The notes under the pieces: model-generated
The model's database searches: none
What the model saw: only the letters and a program-made list of their open reading frames with translations
What the model was told of the DNA's origin: nothing
Shown: positions 24,130 to 32,000 of the stretch, piece by piece
Layout of the letters: every line of letters begins with the position of its first letter
How positions within the stretch are numbered: the stretch's first letter is position 1
Made by a program: the position numbers and the translations under genes
Assembly (NCBI GenBank): GCA_902812445.1
Contig: CADDZF010000010.1
Coordinates: forward strand, 1-32,000
DNA length: 32,000 nucleotides
Source of the DNA: Methylococcaceae bacterium
GTDB taxonomy: Bacteria; Pseudomonadota; Gammaproteobacteria; Methylococcales; Methylococcaceae
Reading direction: 5' to 3'

Positions 24130-24196
24130 CGGTTAAAATGATTTTTTACAATCGCCTTGAGGCGTTTATTCAGTAATTGATTGATGGAGCTTGAGC

Positions 24197-24559
24197 ATGA
24201 TGAAAGAAACCAAGGCAAAGAATTCAAGGACGGAAAAAGCGGAGACGTCCGCACCGCTAAAAGCCAAAGAAGTCAAGACCGAAGCCCCCCGGAAGGAAGT
24301 CAAGCCGGAAGCTCCCCGAAAGGAAGCGGCCAGGGAAGCTGTCAAAGCAGAAGATCTCGGTGGGCAGATCGGCGAAGCTGCGGGCTTGGTCTGGCATTAT
24401 CTTAAGGATCACGGCGCGACAAGCGCGAGCAAGCTAAGCGAAGGCACAAACCTCGATCGAGACAGCGTGCAAAGAGCGATCGGCTGGCTGGCCCGGGAAG
24501 GCAAGGTTGCGATCGAGCGCCGGGGACGGAACGACTGTTTTGCGCTAGCCAATCCATAG
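24197..24559 (+). CDS. Winged-helix protein (DUF2582-like) with a Lys/Pro/Glu-rich repeat N-terminal tail
   Basis: The C-terminal part IGEAAGLVWHYLKDHGATSASKLSEGTNLDRDSVQRAIGWLAREGKV fits the DUF2582 wHTH pattern. The tail carries KEVKTEAPRKEVKPEAPRKE. The ATG at 24197 follows GGAG. Confidence 0.6.
   Translation: MMKETKAKNSRTEKAETSAPLKAKEVKTEAPRKEVKPEAPRKEAAREAVKAEDLGGQIGEAAGLVWHYLKDHGATSASKLSEGTNLDRDSVQRAIGWLAREGKVAIERRGRNDCFALANP
24269..24322 (+). repeat. Two tandem 27-nt coding repeats (GAAGTCAAGnCCGAAGCnCCCCGnAAG)
   Basis: 24269-24295 and 24296-24322 are near-identical apart from one single-base indel and two substitutions (about 89% identity). They encode EVKTEAPRK and EVKPEAPRK. Confidence 0.8.
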
Positions 24560-24573
24560 CAGCCGGCTCCGGC

Positions 24574-25098
24574 CTATTGCTGAGGGCTGCTGCAAACAGG
24601 AGGGAGCGAGTGCTTTTTCGGGAAATCGATAAACGCAACCTTCCCGCTGCCCTCCACCACTTTCTTCCATGACGTAACGGGGAACTTCAACGAGATGATG
24701 CCGCAGGTCGGAATATCTTCGATGGGCTGATCGGCCAAGCGGTTTGCCAGATCCGTTAGATCGGGATTGTGCCCGACTAGGATGACGCATGCCTGGTGAT
24801 CGCCTACTGCGTTGACAAGATCGATCAAGCCACCCGCTCCAGCCCTATAAACAGCGTCCCGAATCGCGATTTCGCGCGCGGCGAAATCGAGTTCGCCGGC
24901 AATCATCTCGGCCGTCTTGCGCGCTCTTTTGGCGGGGCTCGAAATGATGAGATCGGGCTTGATCCGCATTTCCCTCAGGCGCTTTCCCATGAAGGGCGCA
25001 TCCCTTTTACCGCGTTTGTTCAATGGGCGGTCGATATCAGCCACGCTCGCCTCTTTCCAGCTCGATTTGCCGTGCCGGACCAGAATCAGGTTTCTCAT
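24574..25098 (-). CDS. Histidine phosphatase family protein (SixA-like phosphohistidine phosphatase)
   Basis: The N-terminal catalytic motif LILVRHGKS (RHG), a later VGHNP (His), and a size of 174 aa are typical of SixA-branch proteins. Confidence 0.75.
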   Translation of the reverse strand: MRNLILVRHGKSSWKEASVADIDRPLNKRGKRDAPFMGKRLREMRIKPDLIISSPAKRARKTAEMIAGELDFAAREIAIRDAVYRAGAGGLIDLVNAVGDHQACVILVGHNPDLTDLANRLADQPIEDIPTCGIISLKFPVTSWKKVVEGSGKVAFIDFPKKHSLPPVCSSPQQ

Positions 25099-25334
25099 TA
25101 CTCACCTCTATGACCAATCGTCAAAAGAATCTCTCCAATGATTTGGATAGCCCCGGCCCGGCATCGTCTAACGCCGTTAAAACGGCCGATAACAAATGAT
25201 GACGAATTGCCTGCATTGGAACAAGCCGATTCTGGAGAGCCTTTTCGCAACTGTGATAGAGTGGTCCCACGGCAGAGGAAGACGCCCTTGCCGCAGCACA
25301 CAAATCCACGGCAACCGCTCTCACGAGGAAAGGC

Positions 25335-26081
25335 ATGGAATTCTTCAGGAACCGCTTTTTCCGGCAGCTCGCGAGCAGCCTGCTCAACCTCCTTCCGATT
25401 GTCACCGTCATCCTGGTATTTCAGATCTTAATCATCCAGGCGCCTGTTCCAGATGCGGCACGCCTGCTGGTGGGCATGCTGCTGGTCGTCCTCGGGCTCG
25501 GCTTTTTCATGCAAGGTCTCGAACAAGGATTGTTTCCGATCGGCGAGGCAATCGCGCACGCGTTCGCCCGTAAAGGCAGCTTGCTCTGGCTGCTGATTTT
25601 CGGATTTACCCTGGGCTTTGGCACCACCGTCGCGGAGCCTGCGCTGATCGCCATCGCTCAGCAAGCCGCTTCCATCGCCGCGGACGGCGGCATGATTTCA
25701 GCGACCGCCGCGGCAAAAGCCAGCTACGCGCTCGGGCTACGGATCACCATCGCCCTGTCGGTCGGCTTCGCCGTCATGATCGGCGTACTGCGCATTGTCT
25801 TCGGCTGGCCGCTGCCCTACGTCATCATCGCCGGTTATTGCGGCGTGATCCTGATGACACTGTTCGCGCCACCGGAAGTGATCGGTATCGCTTATGATTC
25901 GGGCGGCGTCACCACGTCGACCATCACGGTGCCCCTGGTCACCGCGCTCGGTGTGGGATTAGCTTCCGCCATCAAGGGTCGAAACCCAATGATCGACGGC
26001 TTTGGTCTCATCGCTTTTGCCTCGCTAACTCCCATGATATTCGTCATGGGCTACGGAGCTTTCATTAAATGGAATGGCTGA
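25335..26081 (+). CDS. DUF1538-like polytopic membrane protein, paralog A
   Basis: A hydrophobic 248-aa protein with the motifs [15 protein letters not shown] and [27 protein letters not shown]. It is clearly paralogous to the next gene. Its end overlaps the next ATG by 13 nt. Confidence 0.75.
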
Positions 26082-26839
26082 GCCATCTGTGGGCGACGGG
26101 CCTGGGTACCGTCCGCGATGTATTGCCCATAGCCGGCATTATCCTCACTTTCCAGCTACTGGTAATCCGCAAGCCCGTTGCCAACCCGAAAAGGGTACTG
26201 ACCGGCTTTGTCTATGTGTTGATCGGCATCGCCTTGTTTCTGGAAGGACTCGAAATGGCGCTGTTTCCGCTCGGCAAATTGATGGCGCAGCAATTGACCG
26301 ATCCTGTCTTTATCGGCGCCAATTCGGTGGCAGGACACGTCCAGTGGCAAGCCTATTTTTGGGTCTACATTTTCGCCGCGTGCATCGGCTTCTCCTCCGC
26401 GCTGGCGGAACCTTCCCTGATCGCCGTGGCGCTGAAGGCCGAAGAGATCTCGGGCGGGGCGATCAAGGCTACGGGCCTCCGCCTGGCCGTCGCTCTCGGC
26501 GCCGCGCTCGGCATAGCATTGGGCACCTACCGTATCGTGACCGGCACTGCGCTGTATATTTACATCATCGCGGGCTATATCATCGTGATCGTGCAGACGG
26601 CATACTCGCCCAGAGTGATCGTCGGCCTCGCATACGATTCGGGCGGCGTCACTACCTCGACGGTTACCGTGCCTTTGGTCACGGCGCTTGGCATCGGCCT
26701 CGCATCGAGTGTACCGGGCCGGAGCCCGCTCCTCGACGGATTTGGCCTGATTGCGTTCACCTGTCTTTTCCCTATAATCAGCGTTCTCGCCTATTCGCAG
26801 ATTGCCGCGTGGCGCGCCAGGCGCGTCCGCTCGGTATAA
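26069..26839 (+). CDS. DUF1538-like polytopic membrane protein, paralog B
   Basis: It shares [42 protein letters not shown] and DGFGLIAF blocks with paralog A. 256 aa. Confidence 0.75.
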
Positions 26840-26859
26840 ACCGATGAGGAAACATAGTC

Positions 26860-27210
26860 ATGCGTTTCAAACTGATCATCGTATTTGTTGAAGACAGCAA
26901 GACCGACCTGATCATGGACGCCGCCCGCGAGCACGGCGCCACCGGTGCCACCGTCATCAGCAATGCCCGGGGAGAAGGTGTCAAACAGGCACGGACGTTT
27001 TTTGGCCTTACTCTTGAAACCCAGCGCGATGTCCTTCTGTTGCTGGTCGAAGAGCACCTGAGCAGGACCATTCTCGAAGCGATAGCGCGAGTCGCCGAAT
27101 TCGACGAGAAATCAGGCACGGGCATCGCGTTCCAGGTCGATGTCGAAGATGCCATCGGCGTCTTTCACCAAGTAGAAAAACTCGTTCCTGTGGTCGAGGA
27201 AGAAATATGA
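26860..27210 (+). CDS. PII-like signal-transduction protein (non-canonical, short T-loop)
   Basis: MRFKLIIVFVEDSKTDLIMDAAREHGATGATVISNARGEG... has a PII-type beta-alpha-beta layout, and GTGIAFQVDV stands in place of the GDGKIFV B-loop. The loop GEGVKQARTFFGLTLETQ is shorter than in GlnB and has no Tyr. The RBS GAGGAA lies upstream. Confidence 0.65.
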   Translation: MRFKLIIVFVEDSKTDLIMDAAREHGATGATVISNARGEGVKQARTFFGLTLETQRDVLLLLVEEHLSRTILEAIARVAEFDEKSGTGIAFQVDVEDAIGVFHQVEKLVPVVEEEI

Positions 27211-27614
27211 ATGAAAGAAAAGCGGTCATACGGGTTCGCGATGTCATGAAAACCGATTTCGGCACGATTGACGGTATCGCGACCGTCAGCGAAGCATTGA
27301 AAAAAATGAAATCGCTCAGCACCTCGGTGCTCGTCGTCAATAAACGCCACGCTGACGATGAGTTTGGTCTGATCACTTCAGCAGATATCGCCCGCCATGT
27401 ACTGGCCAAAGATCGCGCGCCCGAGCGCGTCAACGTTTACGAGATCATGAGCAAGCCGGTCATTTCGGTACACCCGGACATGGATATCCGCTATTGCTCC
27501 CGCCTGTTCGCTATGCACAATCTGGTGCGTGTCCCGGTCCTGGACGGGCGAAACGTCGTTGGCATGGTCAGTCCCAACGCTCTGGTGCTGGACGGCCTGT
27601 ATAAACTCTGCTGA
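27207..27614 (+). CDS. Stand-alone CBS-pair domain protein
   Basis: Two CBS motifs are present: VRDVMKTDFGTIDGIATVSEALKKM...LVV...GLITSADI, and VYEIMSKPVISVHPDMDIRYCSRLFAMHNLVRVPVLDGRNVVGMVS. The start overlaps the stop of the PII-like gene (ATGA). Confidence 0.85.
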   Translation: MNERKAVIRVRDVMKTDFGTIDGIATVSEALKKMKSLSTSVLVVNKRHADDEFGLITSADIARHVLAKDRAPERVNVYEIMSKPVISVHPDMDIRYCSRLFAMHNLVRVPVLDGRNVVGMVSPNALVLDGLYKLC

Positions 27615-27945: not shown

Positions 27946-29505
27946 GTGTTGATGCGACTCGGCTCCTACCTTTTGCTCTTGCTATTTGTTGTACCGGCGC
28001 TGGCGCAGGAGCAGGCCGCGGCGCCCGAACCGCAACCGGAAAAGCAACCGTCGGCGAAGCCATTCGATTTTGCGGCCGTCGAGCAGAGCGCCCGGGAACT
28101 GGCCAGCAAGCCGTACGCTAGAGATGACGGCGGCATGCCCGAATTCCTTAATAATTACGATTACGATCAATATCGCGACATTCGCTTCAAACCCGAAAAG
28201 GCGCTGTGGAAAGACGAAGGGCTGCCGTTCCAGGTTCAGCTCTTTCATCGCGGCTTTATGTTCAAAGATCGGGTCGTAATCAATGTCATCGACCAGGGGC
28301 AGGCCAGCAAGATCGCCTATACGCCGGAATTGTTCGACTTTGGCAAAAACAAGCTGCCGGGACCGCTACCGCCCGATCTTGGCTTTGCAGGCCTAAGGTT
28401 CCACTATCCGCTGCGGAAGGATGATATTTTCGACGAGATCGCCGTTTTTCTCGGCGCCAGTTACTTCCGCGCAGTGGGTTTGGGCCAGGCATACGGCATT
28501 TCGGCTCGGGCCTTGGCAGTCGATACGGGACTTCCCAAAGCGGAAGAGTTTCCAATATTCAGGGAGTTCTGGATCGAAAAACCGGCCAAGAATGCCGTCG
28601 CACTCACGGTCTACGCCTTGCTCGACAGCCCTAGCGTCACAGGTGCCTATCGTTTCGTCATGCATCCAGGACTCGACTTGACCATCGATGTCAACAGTCA
28701 TGTGTTTTTCCGCCAGACGGTCGAACGTTTCGGCGTCGCCCCGCTCACCAGCATGTTTTTCCACGGTGAAAATACCGACCGCTTCATGGATGACTTTCGG
28801 CCGGAGGTACACGATTCGGACGGTCTCATCATCGGGCGCCACAATGGCGAATGGATATGGCGGCCGCTGAACAACCCTCGCCAGCTTGGCATCAGCGTAT
28901 TTCAGGATACCAGCCCTGCAGGTTTTGGCATCATGCAGAGGGACCGTACGTTTGATCATTACCAGGACCTCGAAGCGCGCTATCACTTGCGCCCCAGCGC
29001 ATGGATCGAAGCGCTTGGCGAATGGGGCGCTGGCGCGGTTTATCTGATCGAAATACCCAGCGATGCCGAAAAGTACGATAACATCGTCGCATTCTGGGTG
29101 CCCGATCGGCCGACGGGCGAGGGCAAGGACTGGACATTCGATTACCGACTGCACTTTATCTTGAATGAATTCATGGCGGATAACGGCGGCAAGGTGACGT
29201 CCAGCCGCATCGGCGCCAGCGGAACGGACGTGCTGCATAGTGAAAACCGCAAGTTCGTCGTGGATTTCGCCAGCGAGTCGCTGGAACTGCTCAGCGACAA
29301 GGCGCCGGTCGAAGCGGACGTCAATGTGTCTTCTGGACAAATCATGAATTCGGTCGTCCACAAAAATTCCGAGAACGGCACGTGGCGCTTGAGCTTTGAG
29401 CTCGTACCGGATAAGGATCGCAATCCAGTCGAGTTACGCGCTTTTCTGAAAGTCGGCGATGAAGTGCTGACCGAAACCTGGGTCTACCAATGGAGTCAAC
29501 ATTGA
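27946..29505 (+). CDS. opgG: Periplasmic glucan biosynthesis protein OpgG/MdoG
   Basis: There is a signal peptide (LLLLLFVVPALAQE). Long collinear similarity to E. coli MdoG includes LGASYFRAVGLGQAYGISARALAVDTGLP..EEFP.FREFWIE, GVAPLTSMF, HDSDGL...NGEWIWRPLNNP and LRPSAWIE. The GTG at 27946 lies 10 nt after GGAGGA. Confidence 0.92.
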   Translation: MLMRLGSYLLLLLFVVPALAQEQAAAPEPQPEKQPSAKPFDFAAVEQSARELASKPYARDDGGMPEFLNNYDYDQYRDIRFKPEKALWKDEGLPFQVQLFHRGFMFKDRVVINVIDQGQASKIAYTPELFDFGKNKLPGPLPPDLGFAGLRFHYPLRKDDIFDEIAVFLGASYFRAVGLGQAYGISARALAVDTGLPKAEEFPIFREFWIEKPAKNAVALTVYALLDSPSVTGAYRFVMHPGLDLTIDVNSHVFFRQTVERFGVAPLTSMFFHGENTDRFMDDFRPEVHDSDGLIIGRHNGEWIWRPLNNPRQLGISVFQDTSPAGFGIMQRDRTFDHYQDLEARYHLRPSAWIEALGEWGAGAVYLIEIPSDAEKYDNIVAFWVPDRPTGEGKDWTFDYRLHFILNEFMADNGGKVTSSRIGASGTDVLHSENRKFVVDFASESLELLSDKAPVEADVNVSSGQIMNSVVHKNSENGTWRLSFELVPDKDRNPVELRAFLKVGDEVLTETWVYQWSQH

Positions 29506-30005
29506 AGTCAACACAGTCCACTGCGGATGCTCCTGCTGCCGGCCCGGCGGTGGCAACAGCGCCCGACCCGGTGTTGCCGGATATCAAAGCGCGGGTAATT
29601 GCTTACTTGCAGCGGTTGCGAGTACGCGATCCGTCGCTGCTGGAGAGCTTGGCCGACGAGTGTCTGCAGCGGGCGCGTAAGCGCAGCGGCGATGCCGGCG
29701 GCCAGCTGATCAGACAGGCGCTCGAAGAGGCGCGGCGGTGCCTCGATCATGCGCTTGTCCGTGCCGCCCATATGAGCAACGCACAGGAGTGTCCTTTGCT
29801 GGCGGGGCTGCGCACTGCGCTGTTGCTGGGCAAGGCCGGCGTAGCGAGCGATGCACTGATGGGCAACTCTGATCGGCAGGCCGAGATCGGGGCTAGTCTG
29901 CGCACGGCGCTGCCGCAGCCGGTTCCGCCAGAAGCTCACTTGCCCATGCCAGAACAAACGCTGAGTTTTCTATTTTGGAAATCTGTTACCCTGCATGAGT
30001 CCTGA
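29490..30005 (+). CDS. Hypothetical 171-aa protein between opgG and opgH (possibly the detached N-terminal cytoplasmic region of OpgH)
   Basis: Codon usage is coding-like. The start overlaps the opgG stop by 16 nt. The C-terminal segment VPPEAHLPMPEQTLSF resembles the segment that, as I recall, precedes TM1 in some OpgH proteins. It ends 27 nt before the first candidate opgH start, in a different frame. Confidence 0.5.
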   Translation: MESTLKSTQSTADAPAAGPAVATAPDPVLPDIKARVIAYLQRLRVRDPSLLESLADECLQRARKRSGDAGGQLIRQALEEARRCLDHALVRAAHMSNAQECPLLAGLRTALLLGKAGVASDALMGNSDRQAEIGASLRTALPQPVPPEAHLPMPEQTLSFLFWKSVTLHES

Positions 30006-30031
30006 AATATGACCAAGGCAGCCTACAGGCC

Positions 30032-32000
30032 GTGAATGCTCCAACCGTGCCGCCGCATCTCCGCATCTTCCGGAGAACGATTTATTGTGTACTCATAATC
30101 TTAAGCACACTGGCGGCGCTCGGCCTACTCACCAGCTCTTTTCTGCAAGACGGCATTACGCCACTGGAATTACTTTTGCTGGTGCTCTATGCGCTATTGA
30201 TGCTGTGGATAAGTACTTCCTTTTGGGCAGCGACCATTGGATTTTGGATTCTGCTTTGGGGCGATCGCATGGCGATTTCGAGGTTCTTGCCGCACAGCGC
30301 CGAGGATCCGGGCGATGCCAAGTCCCATCGCCGCAGCGCGCTGGTCATGCCGATTTACAACGAAGACACGAAGCGGGTGTTTGCAGGTCTAAAAGCGATT
30401 TACCAATCGCTGCTGGAAACCCGTCGGGCGGATGAGTTCGATTTATTCGTTCTGAGCGACACGCGCGATCCTGACATCTGGGTCGAGGAAGAACTCGCGT
30501 GGTATCAGCTATGCGTCGACATGAGCGCACACGGGAAAATATTTTATCGCAACCGGGAAAAAAACAGCGGCCGCAAAAGCGGCAATCTGGCGGATTTCTG
30601 CCGGCGCTGGGGCGGACGTTATCGCTACATGATCGTCCTAGATGCCGATAGCCTGATGGGCGCGAATACCGTGGTCAAAATGGTCGATTTGATGGAAACC
30701 AATCCGCGCATCGCATTGCTGCAGACGGCACCCCTGCCGATCAATCATGAATCGTTGTTCGCGCGTATCTTGCAGTTCGCGAGCAGTCTATACAGCGATA
30801 TTTTCACCGCCGGCATTTCCTTCTGGCAATTATCGGAAAGCAATTATTGGGGCCATAACGCCATCATCCGCGTCAAACCTTTCGTGGAACATTGCGGCTT
30901 GCCCAAACTATCGGGCCGCGAGCCGTTTGGAGGGGAGATCCTGAGTCATGACTTCGTCGAGGCTGCCCTGTTGCGCAAGGCAGGCTGGGAAGTCTGGCTG
31001 GCCTACGACTTAAAGGAAAGCTACGAAGAGCTCCCGCCGACGCTGATCGATTATGCCAAACGCGACCGGCGCTGGTGTCAGGGCAACCTGCAGCACATTC
31101 GCATGGTATTCGCCCGCGGGCTCTCCGGAATCAGCCGGCTGCACTTTTTGATGGGCATCATGTCGTATCTGTCTTCGCCGCTGTGGCTGTTATTTCTGAT
31201 CATTACCGGCATCGAGGCGTATATCAGAACGCAGACCATGCCGGTTTATTTCTTCGGCGACAATATCTTCCCGGTGTGGCCCGAATCCTATGCCGTCGAG
31301 ATGACGACGGTACTCTTGGTGACCTTGGCCATGCTGTTCCTGCCGAAGATTCTCAGCCTATTGCTGCTTTTTATACGCCGCGAACGGGTCCGGGCTTATG
31401 GCGGCGTTTGGAAGGTTACCCTGAGCGCCGTCCTAGAAACGCTGTTCTCGATACTGACCGCGCCGATACTGATGCTATACCAGAGCAAATTCGTCTTCGC
31501 CATACTGTTACGGCGCAGCACAGGCTGGCCGGCACAGCAGCGGGGCGATCACCGTCTGGGCTTCCGGGAAGCGTTTCGGGCTCATGGCGGGCAGACTTTT
31601 GTAGGTCTCATCGCAGGTACGGCAAGCTATTGGTATATCCCAAATTTCTTCTGGTGGCTCATACCGGTGTTGCTGGGGCTGGTCCTGTCGATGCCGGTTT
31701 CGATCATCTCGAGCAGCACCCGCCTCGGCAGGTTGATGCGTCAAATGGGCTTGTTCTTGACGCCGGAAGAATCGGACCCGCCGCGTATCATTCGCCTACT
31801 GCACGAGAATCTGTCTCATACCTCAAGGCATGCCCCGGATCAGGCGAGCGGAATTCATCATGGGATCACAGATCCCGGCGTTTGTGCCTTACATCTTGCG
31901 CTATTGCCCAATCGGCCGATCAGGAAACGCCAGCGTCATGAGCTAAGGGCGCTGGTCTATCAATTGCTGGAGGAAGGTGTGGAGAATTTGTCGGCGAGTG
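30032..32000 (+). CDS. opgH: Glucan biosynthesis glucosyltransferase OpgH/MdoH (3' end outside window)
   Basis: This ORF is missing from the ORF track because it has no stop in the window. My own translation of this frame (codon starts at 3n+2) has no stop from 29999 to 30660 or in the two later stretches I translated (around 31061 and 31922-32000). The absence of any track ORF in this frame after 30000 supports openness in between. Translated stretches include ALVMPIYNEDTKRVFAGLKAIYQSL...LSDTRDPDIWVEE...RKSGNLADFCRRWGGRYRYMIVLDADSLMG and RDRRWCQGNLQH, the GT2 signature of OpgH. The start is GTG at 30032 or 30047 and is uncertain. Confidence 0.9.
   Translation, partial: MNAPTVPPHLRIFRRTIYCVLIILSTLAALGLLTSSFLQDGITPLELLLLVLYALLMLWISTSFWAATIGFWILLWGDRMAISRFLPHSAEDPGDAKSHRRSALVMPIYNEDTKRVFAGLKAIYQSLLETRRADEFDLFVLSDTRDPDIWVEEELAWYQLCVDMSAHGKIFYRNREKNSGRKSGNLADFCRRWGGRYRYMIVLDADSLMGANTVVKMVDLMETNPRIALLQTAPLPINHESLFARILQFASSLYSDIFTAGISFWQLSESNYWGHNAIIRVKPFVEHCGLPKLSGREPFGGEILSHDFVEAALLRKAGWEVWLAYDLKESYEELPPTLIDYAKRDRRWCQGNLQHIRMVFARGLSGISRLHFLMGIMSYLSSPLWLLFLIITGIEAYIRTQTMPVYFFGDNIFPVWPESYAVEMTTVLLVTLAMLFLPKILSLLLLFIRRERVRAYGGVWKVTLSAVLETLFSILTAPILMLYQSKFVFAILLRRSTGWPAQQRGDHRLGFREAFRAHGGQTFVGLIAGTASYWYIPNFFWWLIPVLLGLVLSMPVSIISSSTRLGRLMRQMGLFLTPEESDPPRIIRLLHENLSHTSRHAPDQASGIHHGITDPGVCALHLALLPNRPIRKRQRHELRALVYQLLEEGVENLSAS

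Follow-up and report, generated by a model that had tools for sequence, protein, structure and literature searches.

The best described relatives of the membrane proteins studied here are UmpA and UmpB of Halomonas zhaodongensis, which form a heterodimeric Na+(Li+,K+)/H+ antiporter (Meng et al. 2017, PMC5484666). Antiport was measured in everted vesicles after expression in E. coli KNabc, complementation of this strain requires umpA and umpB together, and the two proteins co-immunoprecipitate (PMC5484666). Loop III-IV is longer in UmpA, and UmpB has a longer loop II-III together with a hydrophilic C-terminus (PMC5484666). The cloned Halomonas fragment ends at umpB, PII and CBS partners go unmentioned, and UmpAB is active in E. 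coli without these two soluble proteins (PMC5484666). The latter finding suggests that the role of such partners would be regulatory rather than catalytic. The UmpAB assignment comes from this single paper with heterologous expression in E. coli KNabc. Both subunits have NCBIfam models that name them (NF041627 for UmpA and NF041628 for UmpB). An earlier note on the present DNA, which held that the DUF1538 family had no assigned substrate and proposed an uncharacterised transporter, was mistaken in both respects, the family having a member characterised in 2017.

Few signal transducers are as widespread as the PII proteins, whose known targets among transporters serve nitrogen and inorganic carbon, as in the AmtB-GlnK and SbtA-SbtB pairs. 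A partnership of PII and CBS proteins with DUF1538 is undescribed in the searchable literature. We report here a four-gene cassette in which two DUF1538 genes are followed by genes for a PII-like protein and a CBS-pair protein.

The cassette lies on the forward strand of the window, which is the whole 32,000-nucleotide stretch of Methylococcaceae DNA that was analysed. Gene A (positions 25335..26081) codes for a UmpA-like DUF1538 membrane subunit of 248 residues and gene B (26069..26839) for a UmpB-like DUF1538 membrane subunit of 256 residues. They are followed by the genes for the DUF1538-associated PII-like protein, 116 residues long (26860..27210), and for a stand-alone CBS-pair protein of 135 residues (27207..27614). 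As read from the sequence, genes A and B share 13 nt, B is separated from the PII-like gene by a gap of 20 nt with a GAGGA motif 9 nt ahead of the ATG, and an ATGA overlap links the PII-like gene to the CBS gene. The ORF list and the reading of the sequence agree with the coordinates, strand and junctions first proposed for the four ORFs. The presumed promoter region and leader (25099..25334, forward strand) occupies the 236 nt between a divergent SixA-like gene and gene A, with the Shine-Dalgarno sequence GAGGAAAGG right before the ATG. Neither a sigma-70 consensus scan of this leader nor a terminator scan gave anything above chance, and both are neutral on whether the cassette forms a single transcript. 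Rfam families had no match at E<=1 in the window region including the leader, and the sequences ahead of the cassette in 11 related loci gave no riboswitch or leader RNA match either.

Pfam searches confirmed the four family assignments made from the letters alone. A and B score far above the cut-off of PF07556 (DUF1538; 22.6 bits), A with 229 bits (E 1e-68) over profile positions 1-210 of 211 and B with 214 bits (E 1e-63). They share 42% identity (E 4e-59), which establishes them as paralogs and bears out the common sequence blocks quoted for the pair. By sequence comparison they match UmpA and UmpB in an orthologous, reciprocal best pattern: A reaches 348 bits on NF041627 against 194 bits on the UmpB model, and B 329 bits on NF041628 against 199 bits on the UmpA model. 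These scores stay under the equivalog cut-offs of 490 and 500, respectively, so that the same substrate as UmpAB is not guaranteed. Similar values (357 and 345 bits) are obtained on the two models for the pair encoded in a Halomonas MAG (locus L038), and a homolog search from the UmpA of this MAG returned 120 matches, none of which bears the UmpA name. The window pair further resembles UmpAB in being encoded by two adjoining, overlapping genes and in its subunit-specific features. A has a 9-residue insert that corresponds to the UmpA-type longer loop III-IV, and B has a 14-residue insert that corresponds to the UmpB-type longer loop II-III, as well as a basic hydrophilic C-terminus with a RARRVRSV tail. 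It differs in its scores under the equivalog cut-offs and in that the published work covers umpAB alone, with no PII or CBS gene. The idea that A and B form a heteromeric permease is supported by the co-immunoprecipitation of the Halomonas subunits (PMC5484666) and by natural fusions of A and B in one ORF, found in loci L060, L062 and L075 and in most Firmicute-type loci.

The AF2 model of A (pLDDT 84) has 10 helices. No relative of DUF1538 was found in the PDB, either by sequence search or by fold search of the A model. The Gly/Thr-rich motifs of the N- and C-terminal halves had been thought to echo each other as in transporters built from internal repeats. Alignment of the two half-profiles with hhalign gives a probability of only 0.1%, and the repeat was dropped at the sequence level; what stands is that the model places a helix-break-helix element at each motif. 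Two acidic residues only are invariant throughout the family, Glu101 (in 'AEP') and Asp188 (in 'DSGG'), both located in the Gly/Thr-rich tips, and Arg153 is the only other invariant charged residue. These three residues are the likely cation/proton sites.

The PII-like protein scores 45 bits on PF00543 (P-II; cut-off 25) and has no NCBIfam match. Its AF2 model displays the ferredoxin-like beta-alpha-beta-beta-alpha-beta core of the PII superfamily (E3-11, H12-24, E29-33, E55-64, H65-79, E89-94), with the T-loop between beta2 and beta3 and the B-loop before beta4. Foldseek relates this model with probability 1.0 to many PII entries, among which TTHA0516, CPII, GlnK and SbtB are 18-26% identical in sequence. 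A PDB search with the single sequence stops at E 0.12, and with the family profile the PII proteins of the PDB are recovered with an E of no better than about 1e-4. Residues K4, G26, A27, G29, T31, G38, G40, G49, D57, G86, G88, G100 and Q104 are invariant in the subfamily. The Tyr51 uridylylation site of nitrogen regulators (Y-[KR]-G-[AS]-[AE]-Y) is absent, being aligned to T-F-F-G-L-T-L with Leu52 at the position of Tyr51. The T-loop is 5 residues shorter than in canonical GlnB/GlnK and carries a conserved K-T-F-F-G-L tip (K45-L50). In the B-loop, GTGIAF aligns to G-D-G-R-I-F, and the GDGK(I/V)F signature is missing together with Lys90. Arg101 and Arg103 are also absent, G100-V-x-H-Q being aligned to K-I-R-T-G of A. 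fulgidus GlnB. We take the roles of Lys90 and of Arg101/Arg103, the latter for the ATP phosphates, to be those mapped via E. coli GlnB. The glycines of the PII cleft and the G-x-T-G-x-T strand are kept. The earlier note was thus right on the absence of the T-loop Tyr and of the GDGKIF signature, but its wording that the B-loop is lacking was too strong, as the two B-loop glycines are invariant. The protein belongs to a dedicated subfamily with no solved member, and combines a PII fold, as modelled, with a non-canonical ligand site.

Affiliation to better known PII groups finds little ground. The closest structural matches are CPII of Thiomonas intermedia (5d4o and related entries) and TTHA0516 (2cz4), with Foldseek E about 5e-6. 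Both are likewise PII-like proteins outside nitrogen control, but they share only 21-26% identity with the window protein at TM-scores of 0.5-0.6, which does not set them apart from GlnK, and their gene context is different. The arrangement of a PII-fold gene right next to a transporter gene, tightly coupled to it and coding for a T-loop of near-canonical length, is shared with AmtB-GlnK and SbtA-SbtB, by analogy to which a ligand-dependent plugging or modulation of transport would be expected. The window protein differs from GlnK and SbtB in the absence of Tyr51, Lys90 and Arg101/Arg103 and of the C-terminal CGPxGC of SbtB. Its partner belongs to an unrelated transporter family with no solved fold relative and is a heterodimer, not a homotrimer. 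The CBS partner is an additional component, and some DUF1538 relatives have tandem PII domains or transporter-PII fusions. The profile match to SbtB chains has an E of 0.2 over ~40 residues and no SbtA gene adjoins; in the flanks of the loci no amt or gln gene recurs, and DUF1538 is always adjoining. DarA/PstA and DarB/CbpB, the c-di-AMP receptors of Firmicutes, offer a parallel of another kind, as they are stand-alone PII-like and CBS-pair sensors tied to monovalent-cation homeostasis, namely that of K+ along with osmolytes. In PstA the T-loop is short and the B-loop long, whereas the model of the window protein keeps the canonical, unswapped arrangement (about 20 residues between beta2 and beta3 and about 9 in the B-loop), and the profile match to the PstA protein Lmo2692 (4rww) has an E of 0.11. 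Production of c-di-AMP is not known for most Gammaproteobacteria. Two further leads were dropped. The C-terminal helix of the PII-like protein was considered as a feature that goes along with the CBS gene, but is kept in locus L048, which has none, and the paper on the 'PII-like' Borrelia protein BB0017 deals with YitT/DUF2179, not with DUF1538.

The CBS protein matches PF00571 in two stretches (64 bits) and has no other domain in its 135 residues; its first CBS motif reads G-L-I-T-S-A-D. CbpB gives only a fragmentary match to it, with E 0.001. Among solved proteins it is closest to the CBS pair of CBS-CP12 from Microcystis aeruginosa (5nmu; E 1.5e-23 in the PDB search), which aligns pairwise over the full CBS pair with 38% identity in 116 residues (E 3e-31). 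The CBS pair of CBS-CP12 binds AMP specifically, and not ADP, ATP or cAMP, and the protein regulates the Calvin-cycle kinase PRK, not a transporter (PMC6142219). The window protein has no CP12 domain. The CBS pairs of MgtE, OpuA and ClC offer a likeness of function, since here too nucleotide binding by the pair would be expected to act on the gating of the transporter; theirs are fused to the transporter or its ATPase, whereas the window protein is a separate polypeptide translationally coupled to the PII-like gene.

The association of these genes is widespread. Among the 72 GTDB species-representative loci with enough sequence to be informative, 68 have the order A-B-PII-CBS, and one further locus has A-B-PII. 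Their junctions are similarly tight: A and B overlap in 56 of 70 loci, B and the PII-like gene lie 30 nt or less apart in 58 of 67, and the ATGA overlap between the PII-like and CBS genes recurs in 59 of 66. A metagenome scan seeded with three Firmicute C-halves led to a divergent Firmicute-like clade whose proteins are 24-30% identical to those of the window. In this clade PII-like domains, usually as a tandem pair, adjoin the two DUF1538 units in all 75 informative loci, none of which has a CBS gene. On the subfamily profile the best domains of these distant PII proteins reach 52-72 bits each, against about 25 bits for canonical PII. Four loci, including the L141 type, carry both DUF1538 units and a PII-like domain fused in one ORF, and DUF1538 is followed by P-II in the 5 distant plasmid or chromid loci inspected (5/5). 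The PII-like subfamily spans hundreds of 50%-identity clusters, and three look-ups from PII-like proteins all ended beside DUF1538 pairs. Such conservation and fusions strengthen the analogy with PII- and CBS-gated transporters from which the cassette was first interpreted. A UmpA-like gene devoid of downstream B, PII or CBS genes was seen in three loci.

We consider it probable that the cassette encodes a UmpAB-type cation/proton antiporter with a dedicated PII-like gating subunit and an adenylate-sensing CBS subunit. The near-constant company of the two small sensor proteins points to an undescribed switching of ion export by the internal state of the cell. A and B would assemble into a heterodimeric membrane unit, each contributing two predicted helix-break-helix elements, to exchange Na+ or K+ for H+. 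The PII-like protein, a putative ancestral and obligate partner of this transporter family, most likely docks on its cytoplasmic face through the K-T-F-F-G-L tip of the shortened T-loop, and a small molecule bound to it would open or close transport. The CBS-pair protein may have joined the system later, in the gamma-type clade; its synthesis would be matched to that of the PII-like protein, and by analogy with CBS-CP12 it most likely adds an adenylate (AMP-type) input. The expected symmetries do not match one another, PII being trimeric, the CBS pair dimeric and the transporter heterodimeric.

More tentatively, and with somewhat less than even confidence, the reading could be extended to the whole family. 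DUF1538 would then represent a structurally new class of transporters with, across phyla, an obligate subunit from a dedicated PII-like subfamily not recognised so far, to which the gamma-type clade adds the CBS protein to build a three-part nucleotide-gated antiporter. If this holds, monovalent-cation and pH homeostasis would join carbon and nitrogen uptake among the processes under PII-type control, in members of Pseudomonadota, Nitrospirota, Desulfobacterota and Firmicutes, with a cooperation between PII and CBS proteins of a kind undescribed before. It would also correct the routine annotation of these proteins as nitrogen regulators. A four-gene system with one homolog active in E. coli is well suited to study how a trimeric sensor controls a heterodimeric transporter, and since no relative of the transporter has a solved structure, that of the complex would provide a new fold in addition to a new regulatory interface.

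Another reading accepts a transporter but changes its cargo: the true substrate could be bicarbonate, ammonium or another solute related to carbon or nitrogen, antiport by UmpAB in KNabc being a side activity, and the PII-like protein would report carbon/nitrogen or energy status as in SbtB/SbtA, GlnK/AmtB and CPII with its linked carbon transporter. To our knowledge, every well-studied transporter-linked PII protein controls carbon or nitrogen uptake. CPII and SbtB rank high in the fold comparison and the hosts of the cassette include many methanotrophs and sulfur-oxidising autotrophs, but the matches to GlnK, CPII, SbtB and TTHA0516 are equally weak, the profile hardly recognises SbtB, and marine heterotrophs (Colwellia, Thalassotalea, Hahella, Aliikangiella) carry the cassette equally. 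The core DUF1538-PII pair is found also in Firmicute-type loci from gut and digesters, and no carboxysome, RuBisCO, amt or gln genes recur nearby. The unmatched equivalog cut-offs and the single heterologous study behind the antiporter assignment leave room for another substrate, yet the existing direct transport data concern cations (PMC5484666). We regard this reading as unlikely, and the hint at inorganic-carbon homeostasis in the earlier note found no evidence in our analysis.

A and B could instead serve primarily to sense or to anchor, the PII-like and CBS proteins being outputs whose reversible sequestration at the membrane controls other cytoplasmic targets, in the way AmtB-bound GlnK does with DraG or NtrB. 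It is common for a PII protein to act on more than one target, and GlnK-AmtB is a known case of sequestration at the membrane. The fact that the closest solved relative of the CBS protein regulates an enzyme and the activity of UmpAB in the absence of partners fit such a role. However, in all loci examined the PII-like subfamily occurs exclusively next to DUF1538 or in fusion with it, suggesting a dedicated subunit and not a hub, and no gene for a candidate cytoplasmic target recurs nearby. We regard this alternative as improbable. That the PII-like gene codes for an ordinary GlnB/GlnK nitrogen regulator, with the CBS gene an unrelated neighbour and the adjacency to DUF1538 meaningless, agrees with the public annotation of its relatives ('P-II family nitrogen regulator') and with a Pfam match above the cut-off, but is already contradicted by the motif tests (Tyr51, GDGK and Arg101/Arg103 absent, short T-loop, no NCBIfam match, insignificant PDB hit) and by the census, in which the order is kept across phyla with overlaps and fusions, and it deserves hardly any credence.

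NhaD (584 bits), encoded in the same genome about 4 kb upstream of the cassette, OpgG, OpgH and the SixA-like phosphatase (68 bits, under the 74.5 cut-off) are all present in the window as the earlier note had named them, but the argument from context that it built on them fails: in a flank census of 80 loci, no OpgG, SixA or wHTH gene stands beside the cassette. No fifth gene recurs, the largest flank cluster being a generic sensor protein found in 18 of the 80 loci on either side and either strand. The presence of NhaD implies that Na+ extrusion in this bacterium may not need the DUF1538 system. Genes for CPA2-type antiporters lie next to the cassette in L169-L171 and in 5 of the 80 loci; this context speaks weakly for the antiporter reading and should not be given much weight. 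The closest named relatives of the cassette proteins belong to Methylococcales.

The earlier note described four tightly packed genes, and the ORFs found in the window agree: A (25335-26081), B (26069-26839), the PII-like gene (26860-27210) and the CBS gene (27207-27614) all lie on the plus strand. Read from the sequence, the A-B overlap measures 13 nt, the third gene is preceded by 20 nt of spacer carrying GAGGA 9 nt 5' of the PII-like ATG, and the CBS gene starts within the end of the PII-like gene in an ATGA overlap. Pfam assigns A and B to DUF1538 (229 and 214 bits), the third protein to P-II (45 bits, cut-off 25) and the fourth, with two CBS stretches, to CBS. A and B are paralogs (42% identity, E 4e-59), and the sequence blocks quoted in support of their kinship are common to both. 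No Rfam family matched in the leader or cassette, and promoter and terminator scans of the cassette were uninformative.

DUF1538 had been taken for an uncharacterised family, which it is not: it is covered by NCBIfam equivalogs named 'Na,Li,K/H(+) antiporter subunit UmpA/UmpB' and by the work of Meng et al. 2017. A scores 348 bits against UmpA and 194 against UmpB, B 329 bits against UmpB and 199 against UmpA, a pattern of sequence scores as expected for orthologous subunits. Because both lie below the strict equivalog cut-offs (UmpA 490, UmpB 500), A and B are not filed as UmpA/UmpB equivalogs. The umpA and umpB genes of Halomonas zhaodongensis have to be expressed together to rescue E. coli KNabc, the two proteins co-immunoprecipitate, and everted vesicles with UmpAB display pH-dependent Na+(Li+,K+)/H+ antiport (PMC5484666). 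UmpA has a longer loop III-IV, and UmpB a longer loop II-III and a hydrophilic C-terminus (PMC5484666); A and B of the window differ from each other in the same way. The heteromeric permease proposed earlier gains independent support from natural fusions of A and B in one ORF, found in loci L060, L062 and L075 and in the majority of those of a distant clade.

No solved relative was found by sequence. The AF2 model of A is confident (pLDDT 84, pTM 0.75), and comparing it with the PDB gave no structural match (best E 0.74, TM-score ≤0.26). Profile comparison of the two halves of the DUF1538 domain does not bear out the suggested internal repeat (hhalign probability 0.1%). In the predicted structure each Gly/Thr-rich motif, of which there are two, coincides with a helix-break-helix. 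Across 11 half-domains from Gammaproteobacteria, Alphaproteobacteria and Firmicutes, the sole invariant charged residues are Glu101 ('AEP'), Arg153 and Asp188 ('DSGG'). Glu101 and Asp188 are located at predicted helix breaks, and we infer that they are the likely ion and proton sites.

UmpA orthologs (62-74% identity) turned up at 80 loci in a scan of GTDB species representatives, hosted by many Gammaproteobacteria and also by Nitrospirota, Desulfobacterota, Gallionellaceae and Rhodospirillaceae. Among 72 loci whose downstream sequence was long enough to be informative, 68 conserve the order A-B-PII-CBS on one strand; one (L048) has A-B-PII without CBS, and three (L042, L056, L074) have A alone. 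A and B overlap in 56/70 loci, the B-PII gap is at most 30 nt in 58/67, and the 4-nt ATGA overlap of PII and CBS recurs in 59/66. The four-gene order recurs in a cultured Methyloprofundus genome, where independent Pfam tags mark the genes. The UmpA-like genes without detected downstream B, PII or CBS (L042 5289-6020, L074 5977-6711, L056 5989-6717) belong to Ca. Parabeggiatoa and to two MAGs, one of Thiomargarita and one gammaproteobacterial, and may reflect loss, rearrangement or misassembly; unrelated genes follow directly in L042 and L074 (a 1236-aa repeat protein and an RNase R-like protein). In a Halomonas MAG (L038 7502-8640) the order is A-B-PII-PII-CBS, the two consecutive PII-like genes being 46-47% identical to that of the window.

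Hints of function read from the window's neighbours did not hold up: its SixA-like, wHTH and OpgG genes adjoin the cassette in 0/80 loci, NhaD, ~4 kb upstream, is not a conserved neighbour, and no additional gene recurs in the flanks of the 80 loci. In L169-L171 the cassette is flanked by genes for CPA2-type antiporters, which mildly favours an ion-homeostasis setting; a CPA-type gene lies within 6 kb in only 5/80 GTDB loci. The flanking Na_H_Exchanger genes (L169 4504-7968; L170 2476-5940; L171 593-1825 and 5023-6636) mostly carry a TrkA_N domain (CPA2/Kef-type), and in L169 and L170 two of them follow the PII gene and the CBS gene is absent. Rfam places a cspA thermoregulator (L001, 8271-8653) and a c-di-GMP-I-GGC riboswitch (L028, 8627-8703) just downstream of the cassette in two relatives, presumably belonging to the next genes.

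The pairing of DUF1538 with PII extends much further. Nine plasmid or chromid records carry DUF1538 genes 30-36% identical to A. Of the five inspected, the three Firmicutes have a fused DUF1538×2 gene and, overlapping its end, a 'P-II' gene (222-224 aa), and the two Alphaproteobacteria have a pair of DUF1538 genes with a P-II gene (112-122 aa) behind them; a CBS gene is absent from all five. Another 80 loci came from a metagenome scan that used the Firmicute C-half as seed. PII-like domains adjoin DUF1538×2 in 75/75 of those with at least 400 nt of flank, usually as a tandem two-domain ORF, sometimes upstream, sometimes with three or four domains; the five loci that lack PII lie on contigs ending no more than ~300 nt from the DUF1538 pair. 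No CBS gene was found among these loci. The distant PII domains are members of the subfamily to which the PII-like protein of the window belongs: on its profile they score 52-72 bits per best domain, against only ~25 bits for canonical PII in the PDB. Three look-ups started from PII-like proteins all led to DUF1538 pairs, and the profile gathers 564 clusters (50% identity) at E ≤ 1e-10, single-domain and tandem. In four ORFs, each coding for 617-636 aa, DUF1538×2 is fused to a C-terminal PII-like domain (L141 4203-6110; L145 4242-6107; L149 211-2061; L163 3-1898). In sum, DUF1538 and PII form an ancient and widespread pair, to which the CBS gene is a clade-specific addition. A tandem PII gene lies immediately upstream of the fusion in L141 and L145, and L149 has a partial PII-like match at its upstream contig edge. 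In L110 (4248-8060) a single tandem PII gene comes after two successive DUF1538x2 units, and in L093 (1937-3276) four PII-like domains come after one unit.

The PII-like protein has a predicted PII fold (Foldseek probability 1.0) and is about equally far from GlnK, CPII, SbtB and TTHA0516 (18-26% identity), with no NCBIfam match and no significant single-sequence PDB match (E 0.12). Compared with Archaeoglobus GlnB and across 44 family members, it retains the G-x-T-G-x-T strand, two T-loop-base glycines and both glycines of the B-loop. The T-loop is shortened by five residues, Phe-Phe replaces Tyr46-Arg47 of GlnK, and the arginines at positions 101/103 are missing. The lack of the T-loop Tyr (Leu at Tyr51) and of G-D-G-K-I-F (G-T-G-I-A-F instead) was correctly noticed before; to call the B-loop itself lacking would go too far, as both glycines are kept. 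A long C-terminal helix is predicted at residues 95-115. Set against the ligand sites of PII proteins, these features argue against Mg-ATP/2-oxoglutarate sensing, and a nucleotide cleft is possible. The CBS protein consists of a Bateman module and no other domain. Among solved structures it is closest to the CBS pair of CBS-CP12 from a cyanobacterium (E 1.5e-23, 38% identity), a domain that binds AMP, not ADP, ATP or cAMP (PMC6142219).

We favour the hypothesis that A-B would be an UmpAB-type cation/proton antiporter, on whose cytoplasmic face a dedicated PII-like subunit could dock to set its activity, and that in this clade the co-translated CBS-pair protein might add an adenylate input; we infer the binding to A-B, the nature of the ligands and the direction of control. 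The fragment cloned in 2017 stopped at umpB, and PII and CBS are never mentioned (PMC5484666). The activity of UmpAB without them shows that transport as such does not require the soluble proteins, in keeping with a role in regulation. There is a mismatch of symmetry, PII being trimeric, the CBS pair dimeric and the transporter a heterodimer. The gating part of the proposed ligand-gated transporter survives, considerably strengthened by the conserved partnership and the fusions; 'uncharacterised' does not, the family being known. Other searchable papers mention DUF1538/UmpAB as an annotation label or machine-learning feature only, nothing on DUF1538 was found in the searchable PII-like literature, and a PII/CBS-gated DUF1538 transporter is, as far as this literature shows, undescribed. 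Alternatively, the physiological substrate could differ from the monovalent cations carried by UmpAB, since PII partners are traditionally C/N-related, or the soluble proteins could serve in sequestration or output. A canonical nitrogen regulator is contradicted by the motif tests and the gene-neighbourhood census.

Elsewhere in the window, a histidine-phosphatase-fold protein encoded divergently from the cassette (24574-25098, minus strand) is closest to SixA (TIGR00249, 68 bits, below the cut-off of 74.5) and is not conserved next to the cassette in other genomes. Between its gene and minE, a 122-aa DUF2582 winged-helix protein (24191-24559) has a Lys/Glu/Pro-rich repetitive N-terminus, KEVKTEAPRKEVKPEAPRKEAAREAVKAE. 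The opgH region (29490-32000) appears split into a 171-codon ORF without family match (29490-30005), overlapping the opgG stop by 16 nt, and a 667-codon open segment in a different frame, with GT2/OpgH-type motifs, from 29999 to the window end. Combined, they approach full OpgH length, pointing to a frameshift, whether the gene is truly split or was misread in sequencing.
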